From contig NW_027191404.1 of NCBI RefSeq assembly GCF_041146345.1, positions 1,612,001 to 1,676,000 of the forward strand: DNA of 64,000 bases. The letters run 5' to 3'. The position numbers were made by a program, and so were the translations under genes. The DNA comes from Neodothiora populina. Taxonomy: Eukaryota. Each line of letters starts with the position of its first letter. Position 1 is the first letter of the stretch. Of this stretch, positions 6,400 to 54,189 are shown one piece after another. The notes beneath the pieces are model-generated. The model was not told where the DNA came from. It saw only the letters and a program-made list of their open reading frames with translations, and ran no database searches.

Positions 6400-7644
6400 T
6401 GCGCCGACATTGCAACAATAACAGCACAAGCAATCGATGCGATCACGCATCAAGTCAGTTCCACACTTTGGCGGTAGTGTAATCGTCCAAGGGGATTGGC
6501 AGTGCAGATACCTTCGATCAAGAGACGTCACCAGCATAGATCATGAACTTACACAGCGACAACTCGTTCCGTGCATCAAGGTCTACAACGTCGACTACGA
6601 CTACACGGGGATGAACCAGGTATCGCAACCGATGTGGCTCGGCAGTGCCCTGTATCTACCAGTTGCAAGCAGTGTGACCCATCAGTCAATGACTGTAGTA
6701 ATGAGACCGCATGCTGAAACAGCCAAGGGACTCCGAGGATGAGTCGAGGAGATATTGCCACGAGAGAGTGGCGCCGTCGCCTACCTCACCAGATTATCTT
6801 CCTACTAGATAGCATATCCATAGTAATCTCGACATAGAGAAGGCTTGCTCCAGGTTGCACTCGTCGGTAGTTCGATGTACACCTTGAATACAAATACTGG
6901 TACTGCACTCACATGGAACGGACAGCTCCGCTTCTAGCGGCAGCACTGAACCGCTGGTAAAGCACCGTTTTTTCTCCAGACTTTGCGGGAAGCTTGAATC
7001 ACTCCCGAAGCTAGGGTGTAAACAAATAACGTCGTCCTAACGTCGTTTGATCAGTCCGAAACGATTATCTGAGATTATGTTATATGTTCTTAGATAGACT
7101 GTGATGCCTGTACCGGAGACGTGTGAGTAAAAGCAGAGTGCTAGTCGTCCAAGTCGACTCGCTACTTGCACCTCGCCTGGCCTTACTCCATAGCATGATC
7201 GCTGAGGAAACCGGGGAGGCTGGGAAGGTCGGGCACCAAGCTGAATCGAGGGTAGCTTCCACCCATGATCTGCAAGTATCGGGCAGGTATTATATTATTC
7301 GCTACTGTGGTGTTGCTGCACACTGTATGTCCGCGCCCCAGTGTCGACAACTCACGTTCTTGCTCACCACACCATCGCCTACTCGGTCCTCTCGTGAACG
7401 TATGAACGACTGTTGCTTTGCATGCGCGCAGATTTTGCCCTCTTTCCACCGCACATAGCATTATGATTCATGACTTTATGACCTGAATATCTCTCACGTC
7501 CAGTGCAACGGCCTTACGACAGTACACGTAATTGATTTAAGCTTGACGAATCTCACAATCGGATCATACCACATTCAGCGGTGAAGCAGATACATACATA
7601 CACCGCGCGCATCTCTGCCACCACTTGTCATCAGCACTCTACAA

Positions 7645-16600: not shown

Positions 16601-19600
16601 TGCCAGATCAAGTAGACGATTTCATTGGTTCTGCTCCAGCATCACCAGTGTCTCGATCTCCCTCACTCAAGAAGGGCAAAAAGGGCAAGAAGGGAAAGCA
16701 GCTCAAGCTTGGTACAGCGTCCAATTCCGAACCGATCGCAGAGGTTTCAGCGGAGGAATTAAAAGGCAGAAGAAGAAATGATACCCAAATGATGGTCGAT
16801 TCTTGGTTCCAACCCGAGTCCGATGCGAGTCAAGAAAATGAGCTTGTAGAGCAAATTCAGATGCCCGCTAAGATCTCTCCTGAAGACGTAGAGCCCGATG
16901 CTGCAATCGAGGGACACGCGATTGATGCCCAACAAGATGCCAGCGCAACTGCTATATCAGATGCATCAATAACAAACGCCGCATCGGCTCCCACCGAGAC
17001 CACCGAGCCGTCCAAAGACGACGATGCGGACTCCACAATATCTACGCCTTCCAATGTTGCATCCCTGCTTCTCGCCCGCAAGAAATCGAAAAAGGACAAG
17101 AAAAAGCAAAAGAAGTCTGGAGGCACTTCCGTCGTCTCTGATCCTCAGTCTGATGACTCGGTTACTACCTGCGACGTGAGTTCTGAGCCTGTTGTGGCTA
17201 GAGATGAAGATCTGTCTAAGGGTGGGGATGATTCGTTGTCTTCTTTAAACGACGATGCTGCTTCTGTGCCTTTGCCAGCTGGTGCTGTTGTCGCTCCTGA
17301 GTTTCTTCCGGGACATTCGCCCGAAGATGCTTTCGCACGACCTGAGGGGATATCTGGAGAGATTGCCGCTCTGTCTGAGCCTTCGCCTGGAGTCCTCACT
17401 TCAGTGATCGAGTCGCCCCTCGAAGAAACCAATGCAATACGCGAGCTTGCCTCAGAGGCCATCAATGAAGGCATAGTAGACAAATCAGAAGAATCCGTGT
17501 CAGACAAATTTGCAGAGCCTACAACAGGCGAGCCAGAGACACCCACGACCCCCCTCTCGAAAGCAGAGCGCAAAAAGAAGAAGAAAAAGAGCAAGAAAAC
17601 AGATAGCTGGGTCGATGAGCCTCAGGTTGATACCACTTTGGCACCTGAGACTCCGGGGGAGAATGCTGTTGAAGATCCGATAGCCGCTGTCGCAGATGAG
17701 TCCACCAATGAGGCAGGAGTTGAGGCTCAGTCGACCGCTCTTGAGGTGGAAGATCCTCTTACTGAGGTCTCGGGTGAACTCGAGCCGTCACAACGCGATG
17801 AGATGATTACCTCCTCCGCAGTAGGCGTTGGTGAACTACTGTCAGTGACTGTACAAGACGATGTCGTATCAACTCTATTTGAAGTCGAGAGAGGCGTTTC
17901 CGATGGCCCCGAGGCAATTGCTCTGCCTACAACGACCAAGGCTGCGACACATCCAAGCGAAGAACAAGATCATCAAGAAGACGCATCAGAAGTTCAACCA
18001 CTTGCGGACGTCTCAGAAACGCCGGCTGAAAGCGACGACGCCGGTGTCCAATCACGGTTGCCGAGCAAGAAAAAGAAGAAGGGCAAGAAAGGCAAGGCAA
18101 ACTCAATCGTAGCTGAGCCGACTGAAGAAATCATCGCGCCAGTCGAGGAAAATGCGGATACTACTACAACTGACACAGTTAGAGATGTCCCCATTCTAAC
18201 GGAAGAGCCATCTCAGACGAACGAACCTCTCGCCAACACCGCAACTCCAGCTGCGCCAGAGCAAGCACCGTCGTCATGGGCAGACGAAATGGACGAGCAC
18301 GAAACGGTGAACTCCCCAATCGCTGAGCTTACCGAAACGTCGAACTTGGTCGAAGCTCCCACTGAAGCGCAGACACAGCCTGCAGAGGATGACGATTGGG
18401 CTCTCCCAGCTAAGAAGAGCAAAAAAGACAAGAAGAAGAAAAAGAAGAGCTCCGTGTTCGAAGATTTAGAGCCTGAACCGCAGGCTGCTGAAGCATCTTC
18501 TGCACAAGTAGACGGACCGGAGTCTGCTGAACCCTCTCCTGCACAAGTAGAAGGACCGGAAACCCTAGCAGTTGACGACACTGCTGTTCTCGAACCAAGC
18601 ATCCCAGAAGTCATACTCCCAGGAGCTATAGAAGTCAAGGCCGATGATGAGTGGGCTCAGCCTGCAAAGAAAGGGAAGAAGGGGAGGAAGGGTAGGAAGA
18701 GCGTGGTTTCGGAGCCTTCTACACCGCTGGAGGAGGAGACAAACCCCTCGACTGAGACTGAGGCAATTGAATTGTCGTCCTTGCCTGTCGGAGTGGATGC
18801 AAGAGAAGTCAACAACGATGAAGCACCTGGTGCTAAGATATCTGAACCTGATAAATCTGGGGCCGAGGAATCTATCCATGAAACTACTGCACTCGGAGGA
18901 CCTATGGCAGAGGCAACCACAGTCGAAACGCCTGCAGCCGAAGAGTCTGCGCTTGAGTCAAGCATAGTACCTGAGACAGTGGCCGAGGACGAATGGGCAT
19001 ACACTCCATCAAAGAAGAGCAAGAAGGGTAAGAAGGGCAAGAAGGATTCCGTCACCGCTGAGTCACCACCAGACGACGCGGGTGCAAGTCCTGAGGAAGA
19101 TCAGAAGTCTAGAAACCAAGACGATCTTGTCGCAACTAATACACCAATCACGAACACTGCAGACGACAATTTTGACGCGCCAGCTCACCTCCAGACAACA
19201 GATGATGCGCGACCCTCGGCGGATCTGTCTGAGACTTTACCCGAAAACATCGCGCTGCCTGGGGACGAGCTCACAGGTACTTCTGTTCAAGAAGAGGGTA
19301 CATCAACAGAAGCTCAAGAGCCGATCGAAGAAGTTTCTCAGAGCGCCGCAAATACTCAACAACAGTCCGACGTCGCTCCTGCTACATCTGAGGAGCTCAC
19401 GAAAGACAAGATTACCGATACTGGACTCCAGCAGAGTGAAGGCGTTGCAGGTACAGCTGCAATTTTGATACCAGAAGGAGACGCAGCAGCGATAGTAGAC
19501 CCTCTGGAGACTGCGGACAACAATGTCACCAAGACTGAACCCAAAGAAAACGAGGGGTTCGAGAAGGCTATCACGCCCGAAGTACAAACCGCCGAAGACG

Positions 19601-22600
19601 AGTGGGCCACGCCGACTTTTAATAAAACTAAAAAGAACAAGAAGAAAAGGAAGTCTGGCATTGAGACACCACCAGTGCAAATGCCTGCCGTTGGAGAGAC
19701 CAACGAGCCCTCGCCCACAGACAACAACGTGAACGTCGACACTTCTGCTGAGCTAGTGACAGATAACCACGACGCAAGTACTACAGAACTCAACGAAGTG
19801 CCGCGTGAAGCACCAGCTACGGAAGTGTCAGAGGATATTTGGGCGTCTCCCGTGTCGAAGAAAGGGAAGAAAGGCAAGAAAGGCAAGAGGAGCTCGGTTG
19901 TAACCTCTACTGAGTCCCAAGAGCCTCAAACTCGCGCAGTTCCTGAGGAAGTCGTCGCTGATGATTCTCTGCCCAATGTCGACGCGTCTGCAGCTGGTGG
20001 TCAGCTTGAGGAAAAAGATACTATGCAAACTTTTGTGCAGGAGGACAAGACCAAGGCAATTGACGTGTCAATTGCCCCGTCTATAGACATCAACGACTTT
20101 ACGCCTCAAGAAACACCTGCAGACGAAATATTCTCTACTCCCCTCGAGCCCAGTTCTACTGCTGAGCCGAACTACTTTGGTGCAAGTACCAATCATTCTT
20201 TGCAGACCTCAGATGTGCCAGAGTTTCAAGACAAGGATGAGGTCAAGCCTCGGAACAATGAGTCTTATGAAGAACTTGACGACTGGGACGATCTGACAAT
20301 GAATATCAACGAGCAATTGAACGAGAAGCACATCCTATTCGAGACACCTGCCGATCAATTCTTCTCCACGCCCTTCGAGGCTGTCGCTCTTCCAGGCAGT
20401 GATTACTTCACCTCCAGCGCCTCAATCGAGCATCCACAGATCCCTATAATTGCAGCCACGGACGAGACAACCACAGCACCAAGTCTAGATAAGAACGATA
20501 GAGACACCAACAACGACCCTGAATATAAAATCATATCCCCGCACGACCAAGGCCAACCAGAGGAACAAGACTGGGACGACCTTACCATGAATATCAATGA
20601 GCGTGAGTCCCGAAGCTACGAACCGGAAAAGCCCGTGATTGTCAAAGTAGCTGAAACCAACGAGGGTTCTTCTGAACCCGGTGTGCCAGGGATGAAATTT
20701 TATGAGGATGTCTCGTCTCCGGCTGTCGTTGCATTCGATGCCGAGGCGGAAGATGCTACGCAGCAGAAGGAGGCGGTGATTGAGGGGGTGGTTGTCGATC
20801 CAAAGGATGTACCTTTGCCTGCATTGCACGAGGAGGAGCTATCTGGAGACTTGGTTGAGAGTGCTGTCGACAATACATTTGGTTCTAGCAATGACAATGA
20901 AGGACATCTCGACAGCAAGACAGCGATGGAGAGTCCTACGCCCCCTGCAGATGACGATGCCGAGGACGTGGTCACTTTGCCAAAGCTTTACAAGAAGGAC
21001 AAGAAAAAAGCTAAGAAGGCAGAAGCGCGAGAGTCAACCCCGTCGATCTCTATGCCTCAGGAAGATGAATCCCTGACTCCCCTTGTCGACAACGATACGT
21101 ACCAAAACTCTGCACATCAGCCTTCGCTGGACGGGAGCATTCCTGATGGAAATGCACTGCATGAGCGGGCGCAACAGGACACGGAGGCAGCTGTCAATAT
21201 TCCTACCGAGGAGCCCATGCACGCTGATCCCGTCAAGCAATCTTCAGAAGACAATGAGACAGACAAGACGCTGCAGGATCTGGATCAGGAACCAACGACT
21301 ACACCAGAGCAAGCTGTCGAGACAAGCGAGACACCAGCTCATGCCGCGGACGTTGCTGCCCATGGCACAGAGGCATTGGCTGACGCCTTACTGGGATCCA
21401 CGACAAACACAGCATCGAATGCTGCCGCGCAGGAAATTCCCCAGGACGTCAATTCCAGCTCCACAGAAGTTGTCGATAGTATTCCTCGGGACCTAGATAC
21501 TGCTACAGAAGACGCCCTTAGTGTGCCTGCGAATCTTTCCAAGAAAGACAAGAAAAAGGCCAAGAAGAAGGCTACAGCAGCACAGGAAGAACCTCCTTCG
21601 GATACAACTCTGGGGCCATCTGCGGAGGAGCAGGTGACCAGTGCCGATCCTTCAAAGAAAGCAGACTTGAAGCAGTCGCAGGATCCACAGTCCACAAGGG
21701 CAGATCTTGGTGATGATTTTGCTCGTGCTTTCGAAGCACCTATCGGCTTTGATGCATCTGGTGATCAGGAAGAGGCCAAACCGGCCATATTTCGTGACAC
21801 TCCAGAGAAAGGTCTATCGCTGGCAAGTGAAGATGTTGACGACAACAATCAGCAGAGCCTAGGCAAGATTGTCGATGAGGAGCCAGAAGTCATCCCTGAG
21901 AGAGCCGCAGAAATGGAGGAAGAGCAAGAGACGCCAGGCTTCGAGACTCCAAAGAAACTCTCCAAGAAGGACAAGAAACAGGCAAAGAAAACAAAAGCTC
22001 TCGACTGCGGACCCGAAGAGACCAGTCAACAACCCCTACCTGACAGCCTCGCTAACGAATTCCAATCTGAACTAGCACCAGTGAATTCGATCTTCCCGAG
22101 TGAGGTTTCTGCACTTGATACCCCTGCAGACAACAAAGTCAAGGATTCACCACAATTAAAATCTCGATCAGCTCCCTACGAGCCAGAACCCGAGTGGGAC
22201 ATTCCACAGAACATTTCGAAAAAGGAGAGAAGAAAGAAGCAGAGAACCGGCGAGACCAAGATCTGGGAAGACGAGCCTCTCGTTGCTGCTGACCCTGAGG
22301 TGAAAAGCTTCATCACCCCTGCTGCTCAGGGTCAGACGGATTTTGAACCTCCCAGCGAAGGAATCGAGAGTTTCAACCCACATGTCCCTGAGACTATGGC
22401 GGTTGATGCGACTGGTAGCAGAGGAGAAGATGTGCTTGAAGCTGCTAATGTACCGTTGCCCGAGACACCAGGTGCGGAATCAATCGAACTACCTGAAGAG
22501 GACGTGCCTGCGGCTCAGATAGCTCTCCCTGCAATACCAGCTGCAGAGCCCACTGAGGCACTGGATGAAGCTAGCCATGCTGCCACTGTACCTGTTTCCC

Positions 22601-25600
22601 AGACACAAGATTCCGAACAGGAACAGTCGATCTCGACTGAAAATGTTACGTCTGGTGATCCTACAGTCGAAGCCCCTGCAGATGTTCAAGACATTGAAAG
22701 CCCACCCACCAACGATAACACCGATATTGTTACAGCAGAAGACCCTAGCGCTATAGCCGATATCTCGCAAGCCACAGAGGATCTCATATCTGAGCCGACC
22801 TCCGAGTCCACCGGGGACGTCCCCCAGAAGCTCTCGAAGAAAGACAAGAAAAAGGCGAAAAAGGCAAAAGCAAGAGGACAGGAGCTGGATACTAAAGATC
22901 TCGAAGTTGAAGTGCAGCAAATGTCTGAGCCTGTGATTGAGATGCCGTCTATTGAGACTCCAGGCCTCAAACTAACAAAAGAGCTTGAGCAACCTCAGGG
23001 TGAGATGAATGCTTCTGATGTTCCACTGCCGGAGACTCCGGGCCCCAACAAATCAGAAGAGCTTGAGTCCTCGAAAGGCGAGATCGATCCGTCTGATGTC
23101 CCGATTCAAGAAACATTAAGCGAACCAGCTCTTGAAAGTCTTCATGAGTCCAGAGCAGAATCTGAAGCTGAGCCGGTCCAAAAGCTTTCCAAGAAGGACA
23201 AGAAAAAGGCCAAGAAGAACAAGAAGAACAAGAAGAACGTCGAGACACCAGTGGAAGAGCCTCAGCCTGAGATTGTCCCGGATGATGGCAAGGATCAGGT
23301 CGGAGAAGAACCGATACCCACCAATGACGCGGAGAGAGGAGCTGTTTCAATGGATGTTTCCGAGGCTGCTTCCACGCCTGTGCCAGAGACGCCAGCGGGA
23401 GAAGTACAGCAAGACTTTACCCTCGATACTCATGATACAGAGATTGCGGATCCCCTGCCGAAAGGAATTGAATCTATCTCACCCAATGACGCCTCTGAAG
23501 CACTGAATGTAGAACCGACTCAACGTCAGGAAGATGACTTCGCTCCAGTTCCACAAACCAAGAAGAGCAAGAAAGACAAGAAGAAGGCAAAGAAGGCGAT
23601 GCTTTCTAGCGAACCCGAGTCACTTATCCAGCAGACTCCAGAGACTCCCACGGATGGCGACGTCGACGCTAGAGATTTACAAGATCTAGCCGTGGAAGGT
23701 GAGAACCAAGTAAATGTAGAAGATCGCTTTATGTCGTCCAAAGAGACCTCGGTAGAAGTCGCACTCGGTGAGCGTGCCGATGCCAGTGGACAAGACAAAG
23801 AAACTCAATTGTCGTTGCCGATTGCTACGGAAGAACAAGTAGTCGAACCTGATGGCGAGTCAAAGAACGCCATCGGCTCACCTACAACGACAATGACAGA
23901 GCCGAATACCGGCGACATGAATTCAAGATCAGACCAAGATTCGCTTTCTACCAACCAAGGACCTGCCCGAACAGAGGACACAAACCGCGATATAGACTTT
24001 GCTGCCACTCTCGCAGCCGGACTCCAGGATTCAGGCTTCGACCCTAATCTTGTAGTCGATGACCCGGTCTTCCACAGACGAATCTCTCCTCCTGGAGCAC
24101 CTGAAGCCGATCCAGAAGAGATGTTCTCAATTACATCGAAGAAAAAGAAGGGCAAGAAAGGAAGGAAAAGCGAAGTAATCGCCGAGCAAGATAGTCTTGA
24201 AACTGGCGTTGACAAGTCCTCATCGAATGTGGCTACCATTGCACCTACAGCCAAGGATCCTGCAGAAGTAGATGATTTCGCAGCCGCTCTGAGCGCTGGA
24301 CTTGCTGCCTCGGGATTTGCCTCTGATATACTCGACAATCACCCGTCTAGTCAGGTTATACCTGATGATGAGCCAGAGGCGATATCGTTCGCGGTATCAA
24401 AGCGGAAGAAGGGTAAGAAGAGCAAGAAACAGCAGCCTCTCACACCTGATGCCCTGAAATTGACTGGCGAACATGTCAAAGAGGGACAAAGTCGAGGCCT
24501 TCCTGCTATAACCAAGCCAGAGCTAGCGCAGTCTAACGAGAACAATATCGTACAATTACACCATCACGAGCCTCAGATTCAAGATAAGAAGCCCCAAGAC
24601 CTTACCCATGAAAGGAAGCTATCCCCAATCACCGATGTTCCTACGCGTACTCTAAGTCCCGGCAGCAGAATTGCGAACATCTTTCCCGATCTTCCTCGCG
24701 TGAAGAGACGAACTCACTCTGCTGCCTCGCAGGAACCTTGGGTGGCGGACCTCCTCGATTCGACTAAGGCTACGAATCAGACAACGGAGGATCTCTCAAG
24801 GCCAGACGATGACAAGGCCAAGCCAACACACAATGTTTCCACAGCTTCTACGGACAATCCTCCATATCTTGCCTCAGACGGTTCTGACACAGCTATTGAC
24901 AAAAAGTCTGTCGAAGATCCGACGGCCCCGCAGGACGACAAGAAAGCTCAGGAACCAACTGCTGGAGACTATACACATGATGACGATCGGTCTATTGCCC
25001 AACCAGCATCCTGGTCGTTTGCCAGCTTGGGTGACACTGGAGTGACGAGCGAAGATCCACATACACCCATTGACCAAGGACTGACTGACGAGGAATCTAC
25101 AACCCGTGACCGACATGAACGGGATACCGATCAAGGATCTCGCGACGATCCCTTGCGAATTGCGATTGAGCTCAACCCAGACTGGAGCCTACCTGTCCCA
25201 AAGCAACGTCGCAAAGGACAGTCTGACCCTGACACTACACTTAATGTCGCCGACCAGCCCGAAGGCGGACGAGTCCCGTCTCCTGTGGAATCCACCACAA
25301 AAGAACGAACGTCGTATCTATTCCAGTCACCCCCTGCTGCTTACCGCGACGCAATTGCCGCCCTGGAAGGCACTACTGAACCACCTACATCGCACCCGAT
25401 GGAACAGACGCCAATACGTCGCACTGCCAACAGCGCTCCTCGTTCGATTCCAGGCGAGGAGAACACGGACCAAAGTGCCAATTTCGCAGTGCCGCCATCA
25501 ATCAATGCACAAGACGACAATATCCGCTATGTACCTCACGGATCGCCTGAACTGAAGAAAAGTCATTCTGTCACAGATGTTGAGTTCCCGGAGCAAGACA

Positions 25601-27752
25601 TCAAAGCCCCAAGACGCGATGGCACGCCTTTGCAGGAATCGCGTGAGAGAATGTCTTCTACTGCCGATGATGAAGACCCATTCACTGGCCCCTCTCAACG
25701 ACCTCTGAGCTCAAAATCAAATGACTCGAAATCTTTCTGGAACAATCTGAACGAGAGACCCTCTGACAGAAACCTAAGGTCAAGGCGTGGCATGGACGAT
25801 CTGCGATCCATCAGCGGTACGAGCGACATGTCAGTAGGAAGTGACACTCGTCTGGCGACACCCTTGGACCAACAACCATCGCGAGCGTCAAGCGCGCATA
25901 GCAACCCATCAGGCGGGCCCGGCCTCAGACGCATTGACCGCAGTCGGTCGGGTGATCTACGGGGAGCGGCCAGACAACGTGGGGGAACGCTTGGACCAAA
26001 AACAATCACCATTGAACCTCCGCCGACTCCTCCACTACAAGAAGACGAAGAGAACGCTTTCAACGGTCTCGGCAGCGCCCGTGCTGCGGACATGGCAAAT
26101 GTCTATGTAAGTAATCTTGTCCATCAATGCAGTCACAATGATGGAAACTGAACGTTGCTAATGGCTAAACGCAGGAGGGCTGGGGCGATGTCCATGGGTC
26201 GTCGTCAATGTCGCCGACGCGGCCGCCAAGCGTGCGCAAACGTCAGAGCATGCACATAGTTGATCTACAGACTCGACTAGATCAACTTGTCGCCGAAAAT
26301 GAGCAATTACAGAACGCAAAATCTATTGCAGAGCAGTCGCAGCAGGCGGCTTCTTTCGAAAATAATTCTGGCGGTCAAGCATTCAAGGAAGCATTGCAAG
26401 CACGTGAATCCGAAATAGCTGAGAAGGATGGTCAGATCCATCAACTTCGCGCGGTCCTTGGGCCTTTACAACAAGAAGTCGCGAGGTTGACAGAACTGAA
26501 TGGCGGACTGCTAGAACAAAACAGAAATCTTGTCGATGACACTAACCATCGCTATGCGACTTTGCAAGCCGAGAGCGCCCAGGCTCATTCACAATGGGAG
26601 CAATCAATGATGGAACTTGATAGGTTGAGACAAGAACATGCCCAACTATCAGGTGGCATGGAGACCATTGTCCGAGAAGAGATTGCTCGATCTCTCGAAG
26701 ATAAGAACATAGAGATCAGCAGACTGAAGCAGGACCTTGCCACCGCGACCGAGCAGATTAGACATCTCCAAGCCCAGATCCTGGACACCAAGCATGACGA
26801 CTGGCTTCTATACCGCGACGAAGACTATTTTGACAATGCGTGTCAAAAGCTCTGTCAGCACGCCCAGCAGTGGGTCTTGCGTTTCTCAAAGTACAGTGAC
26901 AACAAAAGGTGCAATTTGACCTCTGATCTGCATGATGAGAGAATCGAAGCCAGGCTTGACAACGCCATCTTGGATGGTACAGACGTAGACAAATTACTCG
27001 CCGATCGTATTCGCAGACGTGATATTTTCATGTCACTCGTCATGAGCATGATCTGGGAATACGTCTTCACCCGTTATCTGTTCGGCATGGACCGCGAACA
27101 GCGTCAGAAGCTCAAGGCATTGGAAAAGACTCTTGCCGACGTCGGACCTCCACGCGCAGTCGCACAATGGCGCGCAACGACTTTGACTCTTTTATCGCGC
27201 CGTCCGGCGTTTGCGACGCAACGCAATCTCGACACAGAAGCCGTGGCGCAAGAGATTTTCTCTGTGCTATCGACTTTGTTGCCTCCGCCTGAGCATCTCG
27301 AGGCTCAAATCTTAGCTTCGCTGCGCAATGTACTCAGAACCGCAGTTGACCTATCCATCGAGATGCGCACCCAACGCGCAGAATACATCATGCTCCCACC
27401 ATTGCAACCAGAGTGGGACCCATCGAACGGCGACTTGGTGCGCAAAGTCCACTTCAATTCCGCACTGATGAACGAGCGATCAGGTGAGTACGCATCCAAC
27501 GACGAACTGCATCGCGCGCAGGCAGAGGTCAAGATAGTGCTTTTCCCGCTCGTCGTCAAAAAAGGCAACGACGACGGTGACGGCGAGGACGAGATTGTCG
27601 TGTGTCCTGCTCAGGTACTTGTTGCGGGACAGAGACAGGGGAAGAAGGTGGTGAGGGTGTTGAGTGGAGCGATGGAGATTGATGATCTGGGCAGGAATAA
27701 CAGGAGTAAGCAGAGTTTGGTGTCTCAATTGGAGAGTAACAATGCGTTTTAG
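7645..27752 (+). CDS. lah: Leashin (LAH), giant Woronin-body tether, often annotated 'involucrin repeat protein'; exons 7645..15378, 15436..26106, 26175..27752; about 6660 aa
   Basis: The 2583-, 3481- and 514-aa ORFs join in frame through two phase-0 introns: 15379..15435 (GTCAGT/GCTAAC/CAG) and 26107..26174 (GTAAGT/GCTAA/CAG). 15436..15705 is open. N-terminal block VDWWKDYEDVRKMEEYTEYIGVCKYCFDP, a very long acidic disordered middle with poly-Lys tracts, and a C-terminal coiled coil plus globular domain match the known single-polypeptide leashin architecture. Confidence 0.88.
11260..11840 (+). repeat. Glu/Arg-rich 8-residue coding repeats in leashin (probable single alpha-helix or coiled-coil rod)
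   Basis: EENLRREH/EEKLRRER/EENIRREH/EEDLRRER/EGQVRRER/EEHLRRER within a ~190-aa E/R-rich stretch. Confidence 0.8.
13040..24430 (+). repeat. Dispersed poly-lysine modules in the leashin middle region
   Basis: Roughly 20 K-rich blocks, e.g. LSKKDKKKRDK, DDDWALPAKKSKKDKKKKKK, EDEWAYTPSKKSKKGKKGKK, LSKKDKKKAKK, separated by acidic Pro/Thr/Glu spacers. Confidence 0.85.
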
Positions 27753-28232
27753 GTTATGGGATCACTGTTATCACAATAGTGTTGTTGGAGGACGGAATAT
27801 GAGGGCATGATGAAACGAGAAATCCATGAGAACATGAGGCTGGATGATTCAAGAGAGTACAGCATGGGCTGAGACAGTCGAGATAGCCAAAGGAGGAGGG
27901 AAAAGGTCGCATGACTAACGATTTGGACATTCTGTGCAACGGCGATTCCCAATATAGTTTCTATAGACATACATAATATTCATTTCACATTCAAGACAAC
28001 ACTTTTACATGACCATTGTCCCACTCGCTAACAAGCATCCACCCAGCCATCTTCGAAAACGCGACTTTTAGTATCAGAAACGCACAGACCAAGCCCAAAA
28101 TCCATAAGACCATATCAAATTTCCAATGCCATATACCATTTTTTGACCCTCTCCCGCCACAAAATATATCCTTCTCCTCAATTATTACGAGACCTCATAT
28201 TTATTCTTAGAGAAGGAGAGAAACAAAAGAAG

Positions 28233-30136
28233 ATGACACTAATCCCCCCCATAAAGTCTTTAGTGATAGACCTCCCACCAAGCTGTATAGAGTTCTGCCT
28301 CGCTGCGCCGGAGTGTTTCGTTATCGGGACTTATTTTCTCGAGAAGAAGGATGATGATCTCGTTGACCAATCCAAGGATAAGGCTGTTGAGAGCGGAGAG
28401 GATGGGGTGAGTAGATCTGAGGGAGGAGAGGAAGAGTATCAAACGCGAACGGGCAGTTTGCTGGTTTATCGATTGGTGGGCGATGAGATGTGGGTTTTCA
28501 TTTCTGCTTATCTTCGTGTTTTTCACTTCTTTTTTTGTTCTTTTGGTGTATCGTCTATCTTTTTCCTTCTTCCCTGCCTTGTCTTGCTGGCTTTATAATA
28601 GATAGGGTTTGGTCCGTTTGCTTTTTCCAATCCCTACAACTTCTTTGCGGAAAGAGCTGGTGTTGTTCCATGTCCTTGCGGGCTCATTTGAGTGGGGTTT
28701 CGGGTCTGTCTGGAAGTTGGTGGCTTCAGGCTGTCTATGGTGTGTGGTTGTTGAGATGTGTTTTGTTTTAGGTATCCAGTGAGCTTGGATGGACTTGGGA
28801 CAGCGAGATTCATGGAGCATTGTGTCCTCTTTTATCTGTTTTCATTTCTCTATTCTTTCTTTTTCTCCCCTCGAGTCCAAATAATTCCCAGTCACTTCGA
28901 CAGCCACGTCAATATCAACAAGAAACAACCCATTCTTACAATTTCCTTTTCTTGTTCTAGTCAAATACAACAAACTCTCCCAACACCCTACGCGATCCTA
29001 GACCTCCACTTCTCGCCGCACGACCCCAACCTCCTAGCAGTAGCAGGCTCGACCGGCGTCCTCGAACTTTTCGTTTTCGCCCCCTCTAACAACCAGCTGA
29101 ACCCTTATTCCCGACATCAGCTCTTCGACCCCTCGGTCTTGGTTTTGTCGCTAGCGTGGCACACAACTCGGAGCGATGCTGTCGGAGTGACTGCGTCTGA
29201 CGGCGGGGTTTATACAGCTTTTGTTTCGTCTGCTTCGTCTTCGTCGAGTAGCGAGAAGACAGGGGTGAGAAGCGTGCGACAGATCCACTGCCACGAGCTA
29301 GAAGCGTGGACGCTAGCGTTCGAGCAACAAGCAGACGAAGACGAGACGACAGAGCGCAGCTGCGCGGTGTTCTCTGGCGGCGACGACGCTGTGTTGCGCT
29401 TTACTTGGCCTGTTGCACTACCCTTACCCCCTTCTGCCTCATCACAAGTCAAACCTCTCGAAACAAATTCCGACAACGAATCTGACGAAAACCAAGAGGA
29501 CGAAAACCCGAAAATGCAATATATAGACCGCCGCATTCACAACGCAGGCGTCACGGCCATTCTGCCCCTACCGGGCCGGAAACAGACCCACATAACCATC
29601 ACAGGCAGCTACGACGACCATATCCGCGTCGTGCACACTCCGGTCGTGGGGCGCAAGGTCATTCTCGCAGAGGAGAATCTCGGGGGAGGGGTTTGGAGAC
29701 TTAAGATGTTGGAGCAACGGATTGAGGAGGGAAGGTCGGTTTTTTATTCTTTTCCTTTTACCCTATCTCTTCTTTTTCTTCTTTCCTAAGAAGAGCCAAG
29801 ATATGTTTCGATGTGGACAAAGGCGATAGAAGCTAATAATCCTACAGATTCATCATCCTAGCCAGTTGCATGCACGCGGGCACCCGCATCGTCGAGATCA
29901 CAAGACCGAGTAGAACTCCAGAAGGATGCGAGCAGGACGACGAATGGACGATCCAAGTGCTGGCTCGATTCGAGGAACACAAGAGTATGAACTACGGCAG
30001 CGACGTGCAACCACTTTCTTCTTCGTCTGCTTCTTCGCGGGCTATAGAGAATGGGGGTAGAGATGTCAGGACGATCGTGTCGACGAGTTTCTATGACAGG
30101 CTGGTTTGTTTGTGGAAGTATCCAATCTCGCTATAG
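28233..30136 (+). CDS. DPH7: WD40 diphthamide biosynthesis protein Dph7/Rrt2 (diphthine methyl ester methylesterase); exons 28233..28489, 28961..29734, 29848..30136
   Basis: DLPPSCIEF...VIGTY, AILDLHF, HELEAWT, SGGDD, HNAGVTAI, TGSYDD, LGGGVWRLK, SCMHAG, EHKSMNYG, STSFYDR. Introns 28490..28960 and 29735..29847 restore frame. Confidence 0.85.
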
Positions 30137-31643: not shown

Positions 31644-32149
31644 TGTTTATATATTTCAGGATCAAGGATATGATACTTGAGCTACTTGATGTGAAACTCG
31701 AGAGTGAAGAGTAGGTATGCGAAAGAAAAGAGGAATGATCTTTTTTTTTTCTTAGAAAGAGAGATAGAGGTGTGTATAAGGACGCGACAACGGAATGGCC
31801 GCTACGTCATTGCTCACATCCGCCTGCCACCCGCCGCCTTTTGGCTTCCATTGAATCCATCGAATCCATGGATGTTTAAGCATTCCACCAGATATTCTAC
31901 TGTTGCCAAGATGAACACTAGTTCGCTCCATCAGATCGCATCAGTAGAGACAAATATAGACAAATGTATTGGAAACGTCCATGTTCGTAGTGTTACCCAT
32001 TATCGCCTTTGGTTGCCCTGACAAGAACTTTACATGCTTTACAGATTCAGACTCCGACTCCAGCAGAATCGCCAACACCTGATTAGAAGTCTTGTTCCTT
32101 TGACAATGTAGCTTGAGATCTGTAAAATGCTTCGGGCCCCAATGATGTA

Positions 32150-32419
32150 TTACTGCTCCACATACACAACGCGGCTGGAGCGGCGATATGCAATATCCCT
32201 GGGTTGACTCTCCCGACTCTCCCGATACACATAGCGAAGATCCGGCCCGCTCTGCCGGTAATGGTCTCCACTGTGATGGTGTTGACTTCTAGACTGCGGG
32301 ATTGGAGATGTGCGACGTCTAGTTTCTCTGACCGGGCCAGCATGATATCTGGAGACGCGTCTAGGCGGTTCGTCGTAGTCTCGACCCGCTCTCTCGTCGC
32401 GAGCTGTGATGAGGCACAT
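32150..32419 (-). CDS. Small (89 aa) Arg/Ser/Tyr-rich hypothetical protein
   Basis: ATG in CAAAGCCATG context, TATAAA about 80 nt upstream (32498-32503), open frame MCLITARDERAGRDYDEPPRRVSRY...RRSSRVVYVEQ. No family recognised. Confidence 0.5.
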   Translation of the reverse strand: MCLITARDERAGRDYDEPPRRVSRYHAGPVRETRRRTSPIPQSRSQHHHSGDHYRQSGPDLRYVYRESRESQPRDIAYRRSSRVVYVEQ

Positions 32420-32928
32420 GGCTTTGAGCTGTCTGCTTGCAGTAGGTGGGGTGCGGGGCTGCTGTCGCAAATACAGTAGAATGGCTGAGTATAGTTCTTT
32501 ATATGTTATATATGGGCTGTCAACGCTTTCTGCTTGATCGCGCAATCGGGGTAAGGATGTATTGAGATGAAATACGAATTGAAAGATATCAAGTAACTAA
32601 CTAATCTTGCGCAGTGTGCCTTAAGACTGCACCTCGGGACAAACTTTGTCCAAAGGAATAGCAGGCTGCGGCTCACTCGCAAACAATGACGTCGGCCAAT
32701 GCTGTGCCAGATTCAGAGGAGGTGCCTTCTGTGTCGCGGCTGGCCTTACTTATCAAAGTAAAGCTACAGTAAGGTACCTTACAGTATGACTGCAAGAAGA
32801 TACGTCTCTCGAGTATGGCATAAGCCACCGTCAGATACATTGAGACCCATCTGAGAAGCCACCACTCTTGCCGATGCTGGTTACCAGAGGCCAGCCAATC
32901 GATTGCTGCAGAGAGTTTCTGCCTTGTA

Positions 32929-34151
32929 TCAATCTTCCTCGCTGTCCTCAGAGGCCACCAAGACCCGTCCTTTGCAGACGACGACCGTCGACTCCTACTG
33001 AATCGTCAGCAAATAAGTCCACACAGATTACATCCGGCTGTCGCTGCTAACCTCGCCATAGTCATGCTCAACATATTTGAGGAGGACTGGGAAGAGCGAA
33101 CCGATTAGAACAGCATCTTCGGGCTCGAGAGTTGTATCCTCCATGTATTCTCGTTCGAAAGGTTGCTCGGCGCCTGTACTCCCCGGGTCGATCATAAATG
33201 CTTCATACGACCCAACTCGGTGATATAGTTGCTCCATCACGTCTAAGCCTGGTTCTATGGCTTTCGTCAAACCGCCACGCGCTGAGTCACTGATATCTGT
33301 TAAGAACAACGTTGACAGGTTTGTTTCGATGATCGCCTGGATGGCCGCTGTCGCAGTAGCTCTGATACCCTCGAAAGGTCTGATATCCTTGTCGAGGAGA
33401 AACTCCTCCGTTTGCAACAGCCAATGCGCTGCCTTCTGGCGATCTGCTATCGTGTCGTAGTCTCTGAAACGTCAATCATATGCGGCTCCAAGTCTGCAGC
33501 GACTCTTACCAGCTTTAACTCCAGGGTAGAGTGAGTAAATGGGTTTGACCATCGGGTCCTTGGACCAGCTCAAGACATATCCTGGCTTAAACATTTTTGT
33601 CAACATGTCCCCCACCCACATAACAACGATATGATGTTCGTTGATCATGCTTTCGTCGGTTCTGAAATTAGGCAAGTATTGCTTTGTAATATCACCGATG
33701 ACTCCATCGGTATTGTGCATGCCTATATCAAATCAGCTTTCTATGAAGTGAGATGATGGTGGTATCTCTCGTCTTTAGCTTCCCGCTCACCTGGTCTAAC
33801 ATGCGCGAAAAGCGACATCGCCCTATCGCGTACAAGATGGAAGCAATCACGCAGCCTTGCTTCGATGGCTGCGTCCGATACTTGTCTTCTAATGTTCGCA
33901 TTAGATGCGATGTGCTGCTTGAGTCGTGAGACCGTGTTCTGCAGACTTATTGCGTTGTCATTTCTTTTGCTAATCTCTCGCTGCAGATGTTCAATACGAC
34001 AGTCACTCTCCTGTAGCTCCTGGTTCAGAACAGTCGTTAGGCCCTCAATTATGATGGCTCTCTTTCGAGATATGTAAGTAGCCTCGCGGATAGGTCTTTC
34101 TCTCTTGACATCCCTTGTAGGCTCTATAGCACCGCTTTCCTGCGACTGCAT
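32929..34151 (-). CDS. Hypothetical ~344-aa coiled-coil protein with a leashin-C-terminus-like / GrpE-like domain; exons 33791..34151, 33510..33722, 33052..33446, 32929..32994
   Basis: Three ORF-track fragments join via introns 33723..33790 (GTGAGC...TAG), 33447..33509 (GTAAGA...TAG, acceptor uncertain) and 32995..33051 (GTTAGC...GCTGAC...CAGTAG). Product: N-terminal heptads, QVSDAAI, HWLLQT, FEREYMED, LFPVLLK, VVVCKGRVLVA. TATA-like element near 34232. Confidence 0.65.
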
Positions 34152-34719
34152 TTTCTGTTCACTGACCACTGCGAAACTGAGTCAAAGGCAGATTGTTGAT
34201 AATGATCAGGACTTAGGATGATGGTTGACTGTATATAGCTCGAAGATATATTCTTGTGTTGCGCTTTTAGTGTGAGTATATGTTCAAAGAATCATGGAAG
34301 TAATGCCGTTCAGCTGATTGCTATGGGCCTTGAGTGATTGTCGCGGATACTTGCAGATGTGGACCTTGACGATGCCCATCCGAAGTACTGACCGTTCACA
34401 AAAGCCGCAACTGGAATGTACTTGTTGTCGGTTACTTTGGCTATGTAAGTGTTGCTGCAGACAACTGACAGTTGTCCTCAATTGGCTCTCGCCTCGCTCG
34501 AGCTTCACTTGTTGTTGCCATCATTCTTAATGACCTTCACCCTCGAGATTTCTCCTTGCACCGTGGTATAGATCATCCCTCTTCTTTGACCACATAAAGC
34601 CCTTCATCGTCAACATCTTCTTGTGGACTACTTCCATCGGCAACGAGTTTCCGTTCTCAGGAGTGGCCATCTCACAATCTGTACGCTGACCCTGGAAACA
34701 TAAGCCAGTTACGAACCAG

Positions 34720-36686
34720 ATGGCTTCATCAAATCCTCCTGATCGCATTGTGGTTGGCGTGGATTTCGGAACGACCTATTCAGGGTAAGTCATCGTATCA
34801 TGCCTTCAATCTGAAGACATTAATTCAAAGAGTCAGTGTGGCTTTCGCGTATTCCGGAAAGCCGGATGCACCTGATGACATCTCAGCAGTGAGGAAGTAA
34901 GTCATTCCTCAATTCATCCACGGAGCTAGACTGATCTCCTGTGTAGTTGGCCCGGATCGAATGGCTCTACATGTGACAAGGTTCCTTCCGCGATACACTA
35001 CAATGAAGGAAATACAATTAACGCCTCATCCAGTGCCGGCAGGAAGCGTAATTCGTCCGGCCATGTCATCCACACCGCTCGGTCTGAAAGACCAGAGATA
35101 TCTTGGGGTTACATGGTTGAGCCTGAGCAAGGTGGATTTCTTTGCTTGAAGCTTTTGCTCGATCCGGCACAGGAATTGCCCAGCTATGTATCACCAACGG
35201 ACATTCAATCTCAGTTCAGGAAGCTGAACAAAACAGCACTGACTGTTCCTTCTGACTATCTGTCTAAACTTCACCATACAGCCAAGCAGGCTTTAGCCAG
35301 GCACTACGGACAGATCATGAGAGATAGCACTGAAGTTGAGTTCGTCATGACTGTTCCCGCCGTATGGTCTGATACGGCCGAAGATGCTACGCTCAGTGCT
35401 GCGAAGGCTGCTGGGTTCGGCCCGAATATCTCTATGGTTTCTGAACCAGAGGCTGCTGCGATATATGCCTTAAAGTCCATTGAACATCATGCTCTCAGTT
35501 TAGGGGACAGCTTCATCGTTTGCGATGCAGGTGGAGGTACAATCGACCTCATCTCTTATGAGATCAAGTCATTAGCACCACTCCAGCTCGTTGAAGCGGT
35601 ACCAGGAATAGGCGCGGTAGCCGGGAGCATATTCTTGAACATGCGATTCGAACAGCTGGTGAGAAATCGTATGGGAGACGAGCTGTTCGATAAAGTTGTC
35701 AAGAAAAGTCCAAGATCATGGGCAAGCGCTCTCGGCCATTTCGACAATCACGTCAAACGTTCGTTTAACCCCTCTGATGATCCTGAGGTAGTTGACAACA
35801 CCAAATTCTATCTCCCATTGCCAGATGTGCGGAACATTCAACAGCCGGCATCAAATCTGGGTTCCTGGACTTGTCAATCGCAGAGATCGCAGAGAATTTC
35901 CGTCCCATCGTCGAAATTATTGTTGAGTGTATAGAACGTCAGAGGAACGCACTCATAATAAGTGGAGAGAGGACTAAAGGTCTCATCCTAGTTGGAGGTC
36001 TGGGTCAGTCAGACCATGTTTTCAAGAAACTCAAATCTCGATTCGCCAATGATGACCCACCACCACCTTACAGCGAAGAAGAGCCTGACCTTCATGCTCC
36101 GGATGCGGATCCTTCAAGGTTCATCATCATGCAACCCCTCAACGCATGGACCGCTGTTGCCAGAGGCGCTGTCATCAGTGGTATCAATGGTGTCCAGCTC
36201 GTTGAAAGTCGCATGGCTCGTCGACACTACGGAGTATTGTGCAGTAAGATTTACGATCCTTCCTGTCATTCTGAACACAACAAGTATTGGTGTGATATGC
36301 AAGAGCATTATCGAGCCAATGATCTCGAATGGCACGTTAAGAGGGGAAAGACCGTTGTATCCGGAGACCCGATCCTACTTGACATGGCACATGCACAGCG
36401 TGATCCGTCCTTGAAAACGAACACGAAGTGGAGTATCATAGTGAGCGATGAGGAGGTAGCTCCTGATGAGTCCACCAAGACTAGCCTCACTCGCGTACTT
36501 TGCAAACTCTCTTACAATATCTCTTCGATACCACAGAGTAGCTGGGTCACAAAAGTAGCTGCCAGTGGCAGAAAATTTTATCACCGCCCTATGAAGGTTG
36601 GCATGACATTCCAGAGCGGAGGAATCCACTTCGACTGCAGAATTGACGGCAAGGTCATGGGCACCGTCCGCGCAAACTACGAGTGA
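34720..36686 (+). pseudogene. Atypical HSPA12-like Hsp70 (actin-fold ATPase) with an apparent 1-nt frameshift near 35839 (pseudogene or sequencing error); introns 34785..34836, 34897..34946
   Basis: IVVGVDFGTTYSG (phosphate 1), WPG...DKVPS, LKLLLDP, VMTVPAVWSD, SEPEAAA, IVCDAGGGTIDL (phosphate 2), ILVGGLGQS (adenosine), AWTAVARGAV. The frame changes between ...LPDVRNI and TAGIKSGFLDLSIAEI with no room for an intron. Confidence 0.8.
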
Positions 36687-37512
36687 TAAATCGGCAGAGC
36701 AGCAGGATCGAGGCCTTCTAGCGAGATGCATCCCTCAGCGGTACTCAATCGACAGCTATCAACTTTGGCAACGTCGACAGAGGCCATCTTCTTGCACACA
36801 TCGGGCGTTGATCCCCCTCTTTCTATCATTTTTCCTGCTTTTCCAAGGATCCGAGCAGTGAGGACATTATCAAGTTTGCACACTACAATAGCAGGCTTCC
36901 TAGATCATCACCGACTAGGATCACTACAGCCAGCTTTGTTTTTGACTTCCATAGGATACATAAGTAGTCTCCAATAAAAGCGATATAAACCCAACATGTT
37001 CCAATAAGTGTAGACAAGCCTCTAATGAAGACCGTATATATACGGTATTCACACGACGAGTGGTGGGTTTTCGTGTGAGTGCGGTACTTGTATAGTCCGT
37101 CCCCTTTTCTGGTCTTCTCTGCCTTTAGCACGAAGCAGCCGCTTTCACACTACTAGTCATCGTGGTCTACACTAGCCAGGCAAAGTGCGGAAAGTAATGA
37201 TAGTGAAGTGTATGTAAGCTATTGATTCACCACCCACACGAATTGAGCAGTGCTCAATGGCATTCTTGTCGCGCATGGTATTGTGGTATACACAGAGTCG
37301 GTATCTGAGTACCATAGGTGGATCACCCGGCCTTACAATACTCTGGCCACAACTGCAAGATTCCCACCCTGCATTCAGGAATGCCTTGAGCCAATATTTA
37401 CAATATCCCTTAGTCTGCAAAACTCCTCGCTCTCCGACATTTCCAACCTTCACATAATGGTAAGAAAAAAACACATCGCGAAACGAAAACCATGTAGCTC
37501 CAGAAGAGAAAA

Positions 37513-44894: not shown

Positions 44895-46216
44895 ACATGG
44901 ATCACTGGACATGTGTGCGTGCTGCCCGTGGTGGCTTTGCCGAGAAGTTCGTTTTGACTTTGCAGGGGTTGGAGGGGTTATCATTACTATTGTTGCGTAC
45001 GATACCACATTACTTAGCAGCCTCAGAGGCTGGGCTCACAGGCGTTCGCTACGAGGTAGATAGCTAGCACTGCTTGCACAAATGGAATTCAATCATGTTT
45101 TTATCGAAGCATACCGAGTCTTGCTATCGAGCCGGTGATGGAACATATCCAAGGCCTCTAAAGTCGGGTATGCTGGCCAATGCTGGTGCGCAGACCTGAG
45201 GCGGCGAAATCCGCGCGCGCCCTGTTTCGGAAATGCGCATACATCTAGCGTCCAAAGTCCCACTTCATCTTTCTCTCTTCTCCATCAGTTACAATGCAGC
45301 AGCCGTTCCACGTCGATGCGGGCGAATGCTTGTCTTGAAGTCGTTTGCCTGCATAGATTGCCGGCTCTTTTGGGCTTGAGCTTCTGTTGGGCATGTTTAC
45401 TTCTGCCATTTCCTATTGTCATGGCATGGGTCATCGTTCAACGGTCATAGGATTCCTCAGCTCGAGTCATCCTAGCCATATACACGCCTCGGGACCGAGC
45501 AAGAGGAGCAGATATAGGTGGATAGCAAAGTGTGACGATGGCAAGTACTGAGACTGATGTCTGTCTATTGGGGACAAAGTATTCTGTGATTAGGATTGCC
45601 ACATAATGAGAAAATCACAGCAAGCATGTTTCGTGAACTTCAGAGAACCATGTCCGACGTGGCACAGCAGCACATGAAACTTTCTTTGTCTTTTTGGTCA
45701 GTACAAATCTCCATAGCTAAACCAAGTCACAGGAATGTTTCTCGCGGGAGCCGGGGGAAACTTTTAGTCATTTGGACTAAGACTTTTGAAACAAACAGTC
45801 AGGCAAGGCGTGCGTTTCCTTCCTGATGGGATTGAGCAAAGCCAAGGTCCCCCCTATCAAGCATCACGTGCGATAGCAGCTTTCATCAACATGCTCGATT
45901 GTCAATATCCCATGGTTGCTACCTTGGCTTTCAATCTTTCTTTCCTTGTGTTTCTCGTTCCAGCAGCAGTGAATTGCCGGTAGGAGTTAGACCGCCGAGG
46001 GCGACAGCAGATCAATATAGGTGTTGATGACATCGTTGCTCTGCGTTTGCGCGGGTCCGCTCAGTGCTCCATCGCTGCCTATAAACCTTCTCGCACTGCG
46101 CCTGACCTGCATCTCCGACGAGTATAGACCTGTCTCCCGAGTTCTATCCATCTTGTCCATCCCCCAGGCTGCTATATTCGCTGTATCCCGAGAATACATC
46201 TGGCAATCATCAAAGC

Positions 46217-47410
46217 ATGGATCTGTACTCGCAGAACCGCCTCCCTGGAGGTTATCCAGCTGATCCCCCTGCTTGGGAAAGATTCATCTTGGGACAGCAG
46301 GATAATTGCCAGGAGCCTTATCGTGGGTCGAGACGTTTCACTGTTGAAGGCATCCCATCCTTCGAGAGTTTCCAAGCACGCCATGACGGACCTCACGATA
46401 GAAGCGTGAGTGGATTCAGCTCTGGTAATTGTTCCACCAGATCGATGTCAAGCAGTCCAGAACCCTCGGTGTTCGACATGACCGACCTCAGAGATGATCT
46501 GCCCGGCAGCAAGCGCGGTTCTCAAGCGTCATCGATGACTGCTAATCGAGCAAGACACGGTTATGGCTCCTTTCGCGGCTCGCCACTCCTTGCCTCTCCA
46601 CGTAACAGTCCGCTCAACTCGCCTAAAAGAGCACGTCGTTTCAAGCGCGAGAGCTCTCGCCATCGTCATCAACCGCGTGGATCGACGTCGTCCTTTGAAG
46701 ATGGCGTTCGCCGCGACAAGGCTCGATTCTTCGCCCAACAGCAGCAGGACCAGTACCGTAACCATCGCACCGGAAAACAGAGCAGGTACTCTGCCATGCC
46801 CAGACGTGAGCAATTCCTCAACGTTCCACAGCAGCCGTACCACCAGAAGCGCCCATCGAGCCTGCATCCTCGCTCATCCATGAGTCTGTATCATGAGTGG
46901 CGTCAGGCCTGCGACGAGCAGCTACGTGAGAAGTCCACCATGGATTTCATTCCTGCGCCTCCTATTGCTGCTTGTGGCAGATGCCAGCACCTGATGCTTT
47001 TTGACAGGACTGAGCATCCACCTACCTGCATCCACAGCCTGGAGACTCTTTTCCGCGGTGCCACATTGGACGCCCGCGTCGATCCTACCACTGCTCCAAC
47101 CACTGCTGCCACCCCCGTCATTTTCGCCGACGACAAGATGACGTACTTGAGGATCCTGAAGGACGAACGTAACAGATGGCACACTGACCGCTTTGGTGCG
47201 TGCAAAGCCGAGGCCAAGCCAGCTATTGAGTACAAGGCCAAACACCTGTTCGTCCTTACCAACGAGCTCTTCGAGCGTGAGAAGAAGAGACTTGACGACA
47301 AGGCGGAGATGCAAGCTGCTGGAGCGTGCACTCACTACCCGACCGACACTCCAGCTGCCCAGCCCAACGATGACTTCTTCTCAGGTGGCGCGGAGCCAAC
47401 AGCATGGTAG
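46217..47410 (+). CDS. Hypothetical 397-aa protein: disordered Ser/Arg-rich N-terminus, Cys/His segment and J-domain-like C-terminal helices
   Basis: Intronless ORF with TATAAA at ~46080. C-terminal CGRC...CIH...LRILKDERNRWHTDRF...AKHLFVLTNELFE. Confidence 0.7.
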   Translation: MDLYSQNRLPGGYPADPPAWERFILGQQDNCQEPYRGSRRFTVEGIPSFESFQARHDGPHDRSVSGFSSGNCSTRSMSSSPEPSVFDMTDLRDDLPGSKRGSQASSMTANRARHGYGSFRGSPLLASPRNSPLNSPKRARRFKRESSRHRHQPRGSTSSFEDGVRRDKARFFAQQQQDQYRNHRTGKQSRYSAMPRREQFLNVPQQPYHQKRPSSLHPRSSMSLYHEWRQACDEQLREKSTMDFIPAPPIAACGRCQHLMLFDRTEHPPTCIHSLETLFRGATLDARVDPTTAPTTAATPVIFADDKMTYLRILKDERNRWHTDRFGACKAEAKPAIEYKAKHLFVLTNELFEREKKRLDDKAEMQAAGACTHYPTDTPAAQPNDDFFSGGAEPTAW

Positions 47411-53338: not shown

Positions 53339-54189
53339 GTTGTTGGTCTGTTACGAAGCCGTAGCTTCACGCATCAAGGGTGTTGTGCGCAGTGGATCAG
53401 ACGCGCAGGTCTGATTTCTTTTTGTTGTTTGACGAGAGACAGACAAGTGATTTCTTGATGGGAGAATGGAGAAAGGGGTGGATGAATGTCGATGTGTTGT
53501 GCAGTAACAAGTACAGACAGCAGTTAGAGAGATGCAGCTGTCGCGCTCCTTCCCCCAATAAACTGCCTTAAAGGTAACAAGTGGAAGTCTACGTCTACGT
53601 CTTGGTCTTAGTCCTGGCCCTGACTCGTGGCTTTTGTCTCTCGGTGCATTTCTGCCCCTTGACTTGACTCGTTTGGGGTTTTCGGCCTGGACCGTTTATT
53701 CGCAATGCCAAGTTGACGGACGGCCGCTTGTCTCGATTAACCCAAGGGTCTTACTTTTATAACTAAAGCTGGTTCATCAGATCTCGATCACAGATATACA
53801 GTGTGTTTCGATACTATACATCTAGAACAAGATGAACATCATTCGGATTATGTCATTCACTCCTCTGTCAGTCATTAGACAGCAGTAGCAATGCATACTT
53901 TGATATGTGGATTCTCACAGCGATAGTATCATCAAGTGTAATCTATCGCTGCCTCTCTGCTTTCCAAACGCTGATCTATCTGTGTCTGATATCTGCCTTT
54001 CGACCATCGTCTCTGACCTTCTGCGTCATACTGTACCATTTCACAATCACCAATCAACTCTTCCTTTACTGTGCCCCACCCGTTCTACCTACCCCATTTA
54101 CATAGACACTTAGTCGCAATCCTGCTCGGCGATTGCTCTCAAATGGTTTCTTATTTATTACCGTGAGACTTGCACTCGACCATCAGGTT

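Follow-up and report, generated by a model that had tools for sequence, protein, structure and literature searches.

The stretch analysed here, 64,000 nucleotides of the genome of the fungus Neodothiora populina (RefSeq assembly GCF_041146345.1, contig NW_027191404.1, positions 1,612,001 to 1,676,000 of the forward strand; hereafter the window, with positions counted from its first letter), carries a head-to-head pair formed by an HSPA12-like Hsp70-fold ATPase gene and a gene for a predicted coiled-coil protein, hereafter the partner. The pair itself is confirmed, both start codons having been located where the first-pass annotation placed them, at 34151 on the minus strand and at 34720 on the plus strand, from which the two genes diverge on either side of a 568-bp spacer. 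We tentatively favour reading it as a fungal instance of an HSPA12-type ATPase accompanied by a dedicated coiled-coil partner, with the ATPase frame broken in this strain; binding between the two products, co-regulation of their genes and any cofactor role are what we infer from this arrangement and from its bacterial counterparts. HSPA12-type Hsp70s range from bacteria to humans, and if the partner is truly a cofactor it would offer a handle on the role of this branch. The present example is a weak one, as its ATPase is broken, its partner is a near orphan and a likeness to the nucleotide-exchange factor GrpE was not detected. The features of the pair are as follows.

32929..34151, minus strand: partner gene, 349 aa, modelled from its GT-AG introns, the codon usage of exons 1-3 and the match to a relative, P0003
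34152..34719, no strand: divergent spacer of 568 bp between both start codons
34720..36686, plus strand: HSPA12-like Hsp70-fold ATPase gene, recognised by PF00012 and 504 relatives, with an exon model from tblastn and GT-AG sites
35839..35852, plus strand: frame break, one base missing compared to all homologues, marked by a change of tblastn frame with no residues missing

The ATPase gene was modelled with three exons (34720-34784, 34837-34896 and 34947-36686), and the phosphate-1 (VGVDFGTTYSG), phosphate-2 (IVCDAGGGTIDL) and adenosine (LILVGGLGQSDHVF) motifs are legible in its sequence. PF00012 matches it with 26.1 bits for a cut-off of 20.6, in the nucleotide-binding domain only (profile positions 107-200 of 599), and its last 281 aa have no match in Pfam or NCBIfam; the C-terminus (...RANYE) is devoid of the EEVD motif. 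Among 3830 candidates compared with the 307-aa N-terminal piece, 504 reached E<=0.001; the best is 50% identical, and the source names include “actin-like ATPase domain-containing protein”, “Hsp70 family protein-like” and “heat shock 70 kDa protein 12a”. A 13-member profile of the ATPase also matches the nucleotide-binding domain of DnaK in the structure 1DKG_D (E = 3.6e-11). Taken together, the PF00012 match, the 504 relatives and the match of the profile to 1DKG_D support the assignment to HSPA12-like Hsp70s, and the earlier description of the gene as an atypical member of this group holds.

Like HSPA12A, HSPA12B and the fungal group of actin-like ATPases, the product has a nucleotide-binding domain with the three motifs and lacks a canonical lid or EEVD, and relatives at 40-50% identity include proteins named “heat shock 70 kDa protein 12a”. 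It differs from this group by its frame, broken in the assembly, and by a best relative that is just 50% identical; because of this distance, it is regarded as a divergent paralogue within the large fungal HSPA12-like family. The best Hsp70 relatives belong to Aureobasidium, Hortaea and other Pezizomycotina, all at 50% identity or less, which marks the window as fungal.

The frame break was delimited by tblastn with three homologues (P0004, P0005 and P0014), whose alignments stay in frame +1 as far as ...FYLPLPDV and then, beginning with AGIKSGFLDL..., in frame +3. Since the homologues are aligned residue for residue across the break, no intron explains the frame shift. Translated as written, the ATPase counts 370 aa and ends at a stop at 35932-35934, for an intact form of approximately 622 aa; the adenosine motif lies downstream of the break and is hence lost from the 370-aa product, and beyond the break 281 codons follow in an open, conserved frame. 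A Logan contig of the sequencing run X1 is identical to the assembly over 32900-36700, with a word depth of 33.9, so that the break is present in the reads, beyond the deposited assembly alone; X1 is probably the source sample and therefore brings no independent confirmation. Two other runs, X3 and X4, contributed short identical pieces in which the site of the break is not covered. The broken ATPase is either a very recent pseudogene or the result of a base-calling error and, given the frameshift, its function may be lost in this strain.

On the opposite strand, the partner gene was modelled with four exons (34151-33791, 33722-33510, 33461-33052 and 32994-32929) separated by introns of 68, 48 and 57 nt, all GT-AG, in which the branch-point-like sequences CTGAT, TTGAC and CTGAC are legible. 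The spliced four-exon gene proposed in the first-pass annotation, with the C-terminal tail quoted there, thus stands, with a length corrected from 344 to 349 aa. By a codon-usage log-odds score, for which confident window genes served as training set, the predicted frame outscores the other five in exons 1-3 (0.04, 0.21 and 0.13, the other frames being at 0 or below), in a range comparable to that of the Hsp70 gene (0.07-0.14); exon 4 is too short to be judged in this way. The long N-terminal helix also proposed for this protein is suggested by a crude heptad score, which peaks at about residues 35-100, and by weak coiled-coil matches, the only ones returned by Pfam for the N-terminal stretch.

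Relatives of the partner are extremely scarce. An exhaustive phmmer search with exon 3 against 1.84 billion representative proteins gave three matches, including one real relative, P0003 (127 aa, from a Logan contig of 4220 bp; E = 1e-5), which aligns with the spliced partner at 47 bits in a pairwise comparison. The other two, P0001 and P0002, were discarded as repeat-protein artefacts, their E-values (7e-9 and 2e-6) being summed over 7 and 5 stretches, respectively; both are long tandem-repeat proteins, and repeats can inflate phmmer scores. Word-based searches of longer proteins yielded no significant match among 622 candidates with exon 3 and among 236 candidates with exon 1, a metagenome scan with a two-sequence partner profile yielded 95 pattern matches and no relative, and phmmer found no match to exon 3 in the PDB at E<=10. 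A metagenome locus weakly matching the Hsp70 piece (L001) was also set aside, as full-length homologues did not match it. From these searches, the partner appears to belong to a tiny, fast-evolving fungal family and to be a near orphan.

The most useful new clue from the window is that the conserved tail of the partner is common to the partner and to a giant, scaffold-like protein encoded nearby, the end of the giant gene being approximately 5 kb from the partner gene.

32947..33150, minus strand: conserved partner tail (residues 296-344, approximately), split by intron 3 (EYMEDTTLEPEDAVLIGSLFPVLLKYVEHDYGE/ESTVVVCKGRVLVAS), identified by its match to the giant gene
27486..27632, plus strand: counterpart of this tail, C-terminal in the giant gene (EYASNDELHRAQAEVKIVLFPLVVKKGNDDGDGEDEIVVCPAQVLVAGQ), identified by blastp, tblastn and hidden Markov model (HMM)
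7645-27752, plus strand: giant gene of about 6,700 codons (ATG near 7645, stop at 27752), obtained by joining three open reading frames (ORFs)

The three ORFs of the giant gene (7585-15396, 15433-26151 and 26169-27752; 2603, 3572 and 527 codons) are joined across two short introns. Ser, Arg, Glu and Pro abound in its product, whose final part is made of a coiled coil and, after it, the tail; no Pfam family matches it at E<=1e-4, the coiled coil has a weak match to DUF641 (E = 0.45), and a phmmer search of its end against the PDB returned one unrelated match (E = 0.83). By blastp, the spliced partner and the ORF 26169-27749 share an ungapped match of 49 residues, 17 of them identical (30.8 bits, E = 5e-5), and significant likeness between the two proteins is confined to these last 49 residues. 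When the partner was compared by tblastn with the six frames of the whole window, this tail was the sole non-self match below 0.01 (E = 0.006), and an HMM built from the partner and P0003 ranked the giant-gene ORF first (E = 1.1e-4) among the 908 window ORFs of at least 40 aa, the next being at 0.72. The match runs in frame across the junction of partner exons 3 and 4, which supports the last splice; exon 3 alone does not reach significance against the giant gene (16.5 bits, E = 0.54). P0003 does not match the end of the giant gene (best E = 0.59) and, as it does match the partner, the partner lineage is not a very recent local copy. Two tail-bearing genes lie within 7 kb of the single HSPA12-like gene, a point in favour of the reading that we prefer.

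The pairing of such an ATPase with a protein of this size was also encountered in bacteria. When bacterial and archaeal genomes were scanned with a profile of 13 fungal ATPase sequences, 20 loci were retrieved, the seven best of which (L002-L008; E-values from 3e-19 to 5e-15) are from Streptomyces and Actinacidiphila. The Hsp70s of these seven match PF00012 as weakly as the fungal ones do (42 bits), and each is abutted by an ORF of 284-306 aa without Pfam match (7/7), which speaks for our reading. At L003, a gene for a patatin-like phospholipase follows the partner, forming a cassette at 4557-9465 of this locus. The remaining 13 loci encode canonical-type nucleotide-binding domains, and no such partner was present in the four of them that were examined. 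The partner alignment (A3), searched in 201 genomes of the order, was found in 4 (L031-L034), with the Hsp70 gene directly upstream in all four and the patatin gene downstream in three. Overall, a partner gene of similar size is present in 10 of the 10 loci carrying the nearest Hsp70 relatives. The bacterial pairing is thus tight yet sporadic, and its patchy distribution (4/201 genomes) suggests an accessory or conflict system.

The Streptomyces cassette, made of an Hsp70, a partner of about 285 aa and a patatin, resembles the fungal pair in several respects. Among bacterial proteins, its ATPase comes closest to the fungal family (29-36% identity, E down to 3e-19). The two partners are of comparable size, neither has a Pfam family, and that of the cassette is predicted to combine a long helix and a beta tail. 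It differs by its co-directional, abutting genes, its phospholipase effector and its restriction to 4 of the 201 genomes. The model predicted for the Streptomyces partner comprises one long helix, shorter ones and a tail of beta structure, with a mean pLDDT of 54.4 and values below 50 in the tail; this low-confidence layout resembles the crude layout of the fungal partner, another point in favour of the preferred reading. A Foldseek search of the PDB with this model listed 500 matches, none of them at E<=0.001 and the first being HIP1R THATCH (0.096), a result that is uninformative on the fold because the model is poor. Foldseek and VIA-align returned no GrpE for the bacterial partner, which says little given the quality of the model. 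PADLOC gave no match for the fungal or the bacterial ATPase, nor for either partner. HSP70 has been described together with GrpE in actinobacterial GTPase-centred conflict systems in an eLife article of 2020, in a different arrangement (PMC7159879).

Some bacterial loci have additional particularities. In two Streptomyces-type genomes, a canonical GrpE gene (G001:C23:121061-121492 and G002:C15:72981-73394) is located on the same contig as the cassette, at approximately 9 kb and 14 kb from it, respectively. Two loci from Acidimicrobiia (L009 4740-10152 and L011 4761-8681) contain two Hsp70-domain genes in tandem, the second one being fused to an FGE-sulfatase domain at L009.

Under the reading that we favour, the partner would act as a coiled-coil adaptor or cofactor, like those which accompany HSPA12-type ATPases in bacteria. 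It has a predicted N-terminal heptad stretch and a C-terminal part closing with a beta-prone tail of about 50 residues, which is also the end of the giant disordered and coiled-coil protein encoded 5 kb away. By this C-terminal part the partner may dock on the ATPase, and it could link ATP turnover to a target; nucleotide exchange is one of its possible activities. Co-regulation of the two genes may be expected from the spacer that they share, the only feature pointing to it.

Several observations weigh against this reading, and many of them bear on the possibility, nearly as likely as a functional pairing, that the two genes are chance neighbours with a common spacer and no functional link, the partner being a coiled-coil protein restricted to its lineage and its tail an element for targeting or assembly that the giant protein also has, possibly through a local partial duplication. 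Head-to-head neighbours are frequent in fungal genomes, and the arrangement alone is no proof of a relationship. No intact reading frame runs through the whole ATPase domain, in the contig of run X1 as in the assembly, while the frame of the partner is intact. The spacer is devoid of sites for the heat-shock element TTCnnGAAnnTTC with at most one mismatch, sites which number 23 in the whole window for 20 expected. The closest relative of the Hsp70 (P0004) and the sole relative of the partner (P0003) are on contigs of unequal length, 7242 and 4220 bp. The partner is not detectably related to GrpE or to its bacterial counterpart: the fungal and bacterial partners compare with an hhalign probability of 1.6%, and the best match of an HMM of the fungal tail to the seven bacterial partners (E = 0.81) falls outside the bacterial tail. 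An ungapped alignment of the fungal and Streptomyces tails made by eye was not borne out by this HMM and was abandoned. Within the window, the partner has a significant match only to the C-terminal end of the giant gene, 5 kb away, in a protein without evident link to Hsp70, where the tail could serve another purpose. Against a chance neighbourhood, all ten loci with the nearest bacterial ATPase relatives include a partner of similar size, and P0003, which aligns with the partner at 47 bits and has no match to the end of the giant gene, indicates a lineage older than a recent local copy.

The first-pass annotation had gone further in considering the partner as GrpE-like, a claim that received no support from Pfam, from an HMM of our own, from hhalign or from sequence searches of the PDB. 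Scanned exon by exon, the partner ORFs have no PF01025 match at E<=10 (family cut-off of 25.8 bits), which also weighs against the favoured reading. The HMM, built from seven canonical GrpE sequences of five actinobacterial genomes, gave the spliced partner -0.7 bits and its last 100 residues -0.1 bits, the latter score being equalled or exceeded by 19 of 200 shuffles of the tail; its best alignment placed ...SLFPVL of the partner on the helical LLPVL motif of GrpE, instead of the beta domain. Profile-profile comparison with GrpE gave hhalign probabilities of 0.2% for the partner with P0003 and of 0.4% when the end of the giant gene was added, and the three-sequence family profile retrieved no GrpE from the PDB at E<=10. 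An AlphaFold2 model of exon 3 and P0003 was unusable (mean pLDDT of 41.5). On the basis of its sequence, the partner would therefore not be placed in the GrpE family.

It is improbable that the partner is a true, very divergent GrpE homologue acting as nucleotide-exchange factor of the ATPase. What would recall such an origin is found in the tail, where the order of the beta-prone segments VLIGSLFPVLLKY and TVVVCKGRVLVA loosely evokes the end of GrpE, and in P0003, which has FEPRYME at the place of the GrpE motif FDPxxHEA, itself visible in the seven GrpE sequences; opposed to these resemblances are the missing PF01025 match, a tail score within reach of shuffled sequences, an alignment to the wrong part of GrpE, and the failure of hhalign and of the PDB searches to retrieve the family. 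Compared with the DnaK-GrpE and Hsp70-Mge1 systems (PF00012 + PF01025), the fungal locus similarly has an Hsp70-fold ATPase adjoining a gene for a helical or coiled-coil protein with a beta-prone end. It differs from them in that the partner has no sequence or profile likeness to GrpE, the genes are divergent and do not form an operon, and no J-protein gene was present among the window ORFs scanned. It is very improbable that the partner is not protein-coding and the four-exon model an artefact of reading open frames: no Pfam family is matched and no RNA run is listed among the matching sequencing runs, but three canonical introns of fungal size with branch-point-like sequences, the codon usage of exons 1-3, the conservation of exon 3 in P0003 at 1e-5 against 1.84 billion proteins and the in-frame continuation of the giant-gene match over the exon 3/4 junction all argue for a real gene.

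The partner and the giant gene's end have the same two nearest named families, which counts as a lead in favour of the preferred reading. In the ESM Atlas, both are closest to clusters of Ascomycota annotated as “hypothetical protein” (scores of 0.95 with the partner exon and of 0.93-0.95 with the end of the giant gene), and the nearest named clusters are GIL1_IRKI_C and MIEAP, at 0.82 and 0.81 for the partner and at 0.80 and 0.76 for the end of the giant gene. The tool treats anything below 0.9 as a lead only. Mieap/SPATA18 (PF16026) and plant GIL1/IRKI (PF24994, DUF641) are the nearest named clusters for both proteins in this resource, and Mieap presents a comparable succession of Arg/Ser-rich disordered regions around coiled coils and of a structured C-terminal half (PMC10845071). 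The difference from both families lies in these scores, of 0.76-0.82, and in the result of the Pfam search: neither PF16026 nor PF24994 matched the partner exons or the giant gene's end at E<=10, a further point to be counted against the favoured reading.

A broader hypothesis, which we regard as a long shot, is that the beta-prone tail of about 50 residues, common to the partner and the giant Ser/Arg-rich protein, would be the docking module for HSPA12-type ATPases, and that these ATPases would be dedicated remodellers of MIEAP-like scaffolds of coiled-coil or disordered type, from bacterial Hsp70-partner-patatin cassettes through fungi to animals. If true, the partnership would span bacteria to animals, in which HSPA12 has no known function or cofactor; a 2026 review gives the function of HSPA12 as unknown (PMC13580251). 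We found no paper joining HSPA12 and MIEAP in the literature, and the matches listed for HSPA12 and GrpE contained no dedicated HSPA12 partner.

The surroundings of the pair are mostly housekeeping genes, as had been proposed, the neighbouring families named in the window comprising trehalose-6-phosphate synthase, CSTF2, Pil1, an MFS transporter, an amidase, VID27, COPA and Sec24, along with the giant gene, which has no family match. Repeats between 32000 and 37500 are at most short, chance-like pairs. Five long open frames have no Pfam family at E<=0.05, at 28032-29789 (plus strand), 32083-32596 (minus), 46106-47410 (plus), 54106-55248 (plus) and 56707-58431 (minus), with a weak beta-propeller match over 28755-29789 (E = 0.049). 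The first two of these frames sit between the giant gene and the partner gene.

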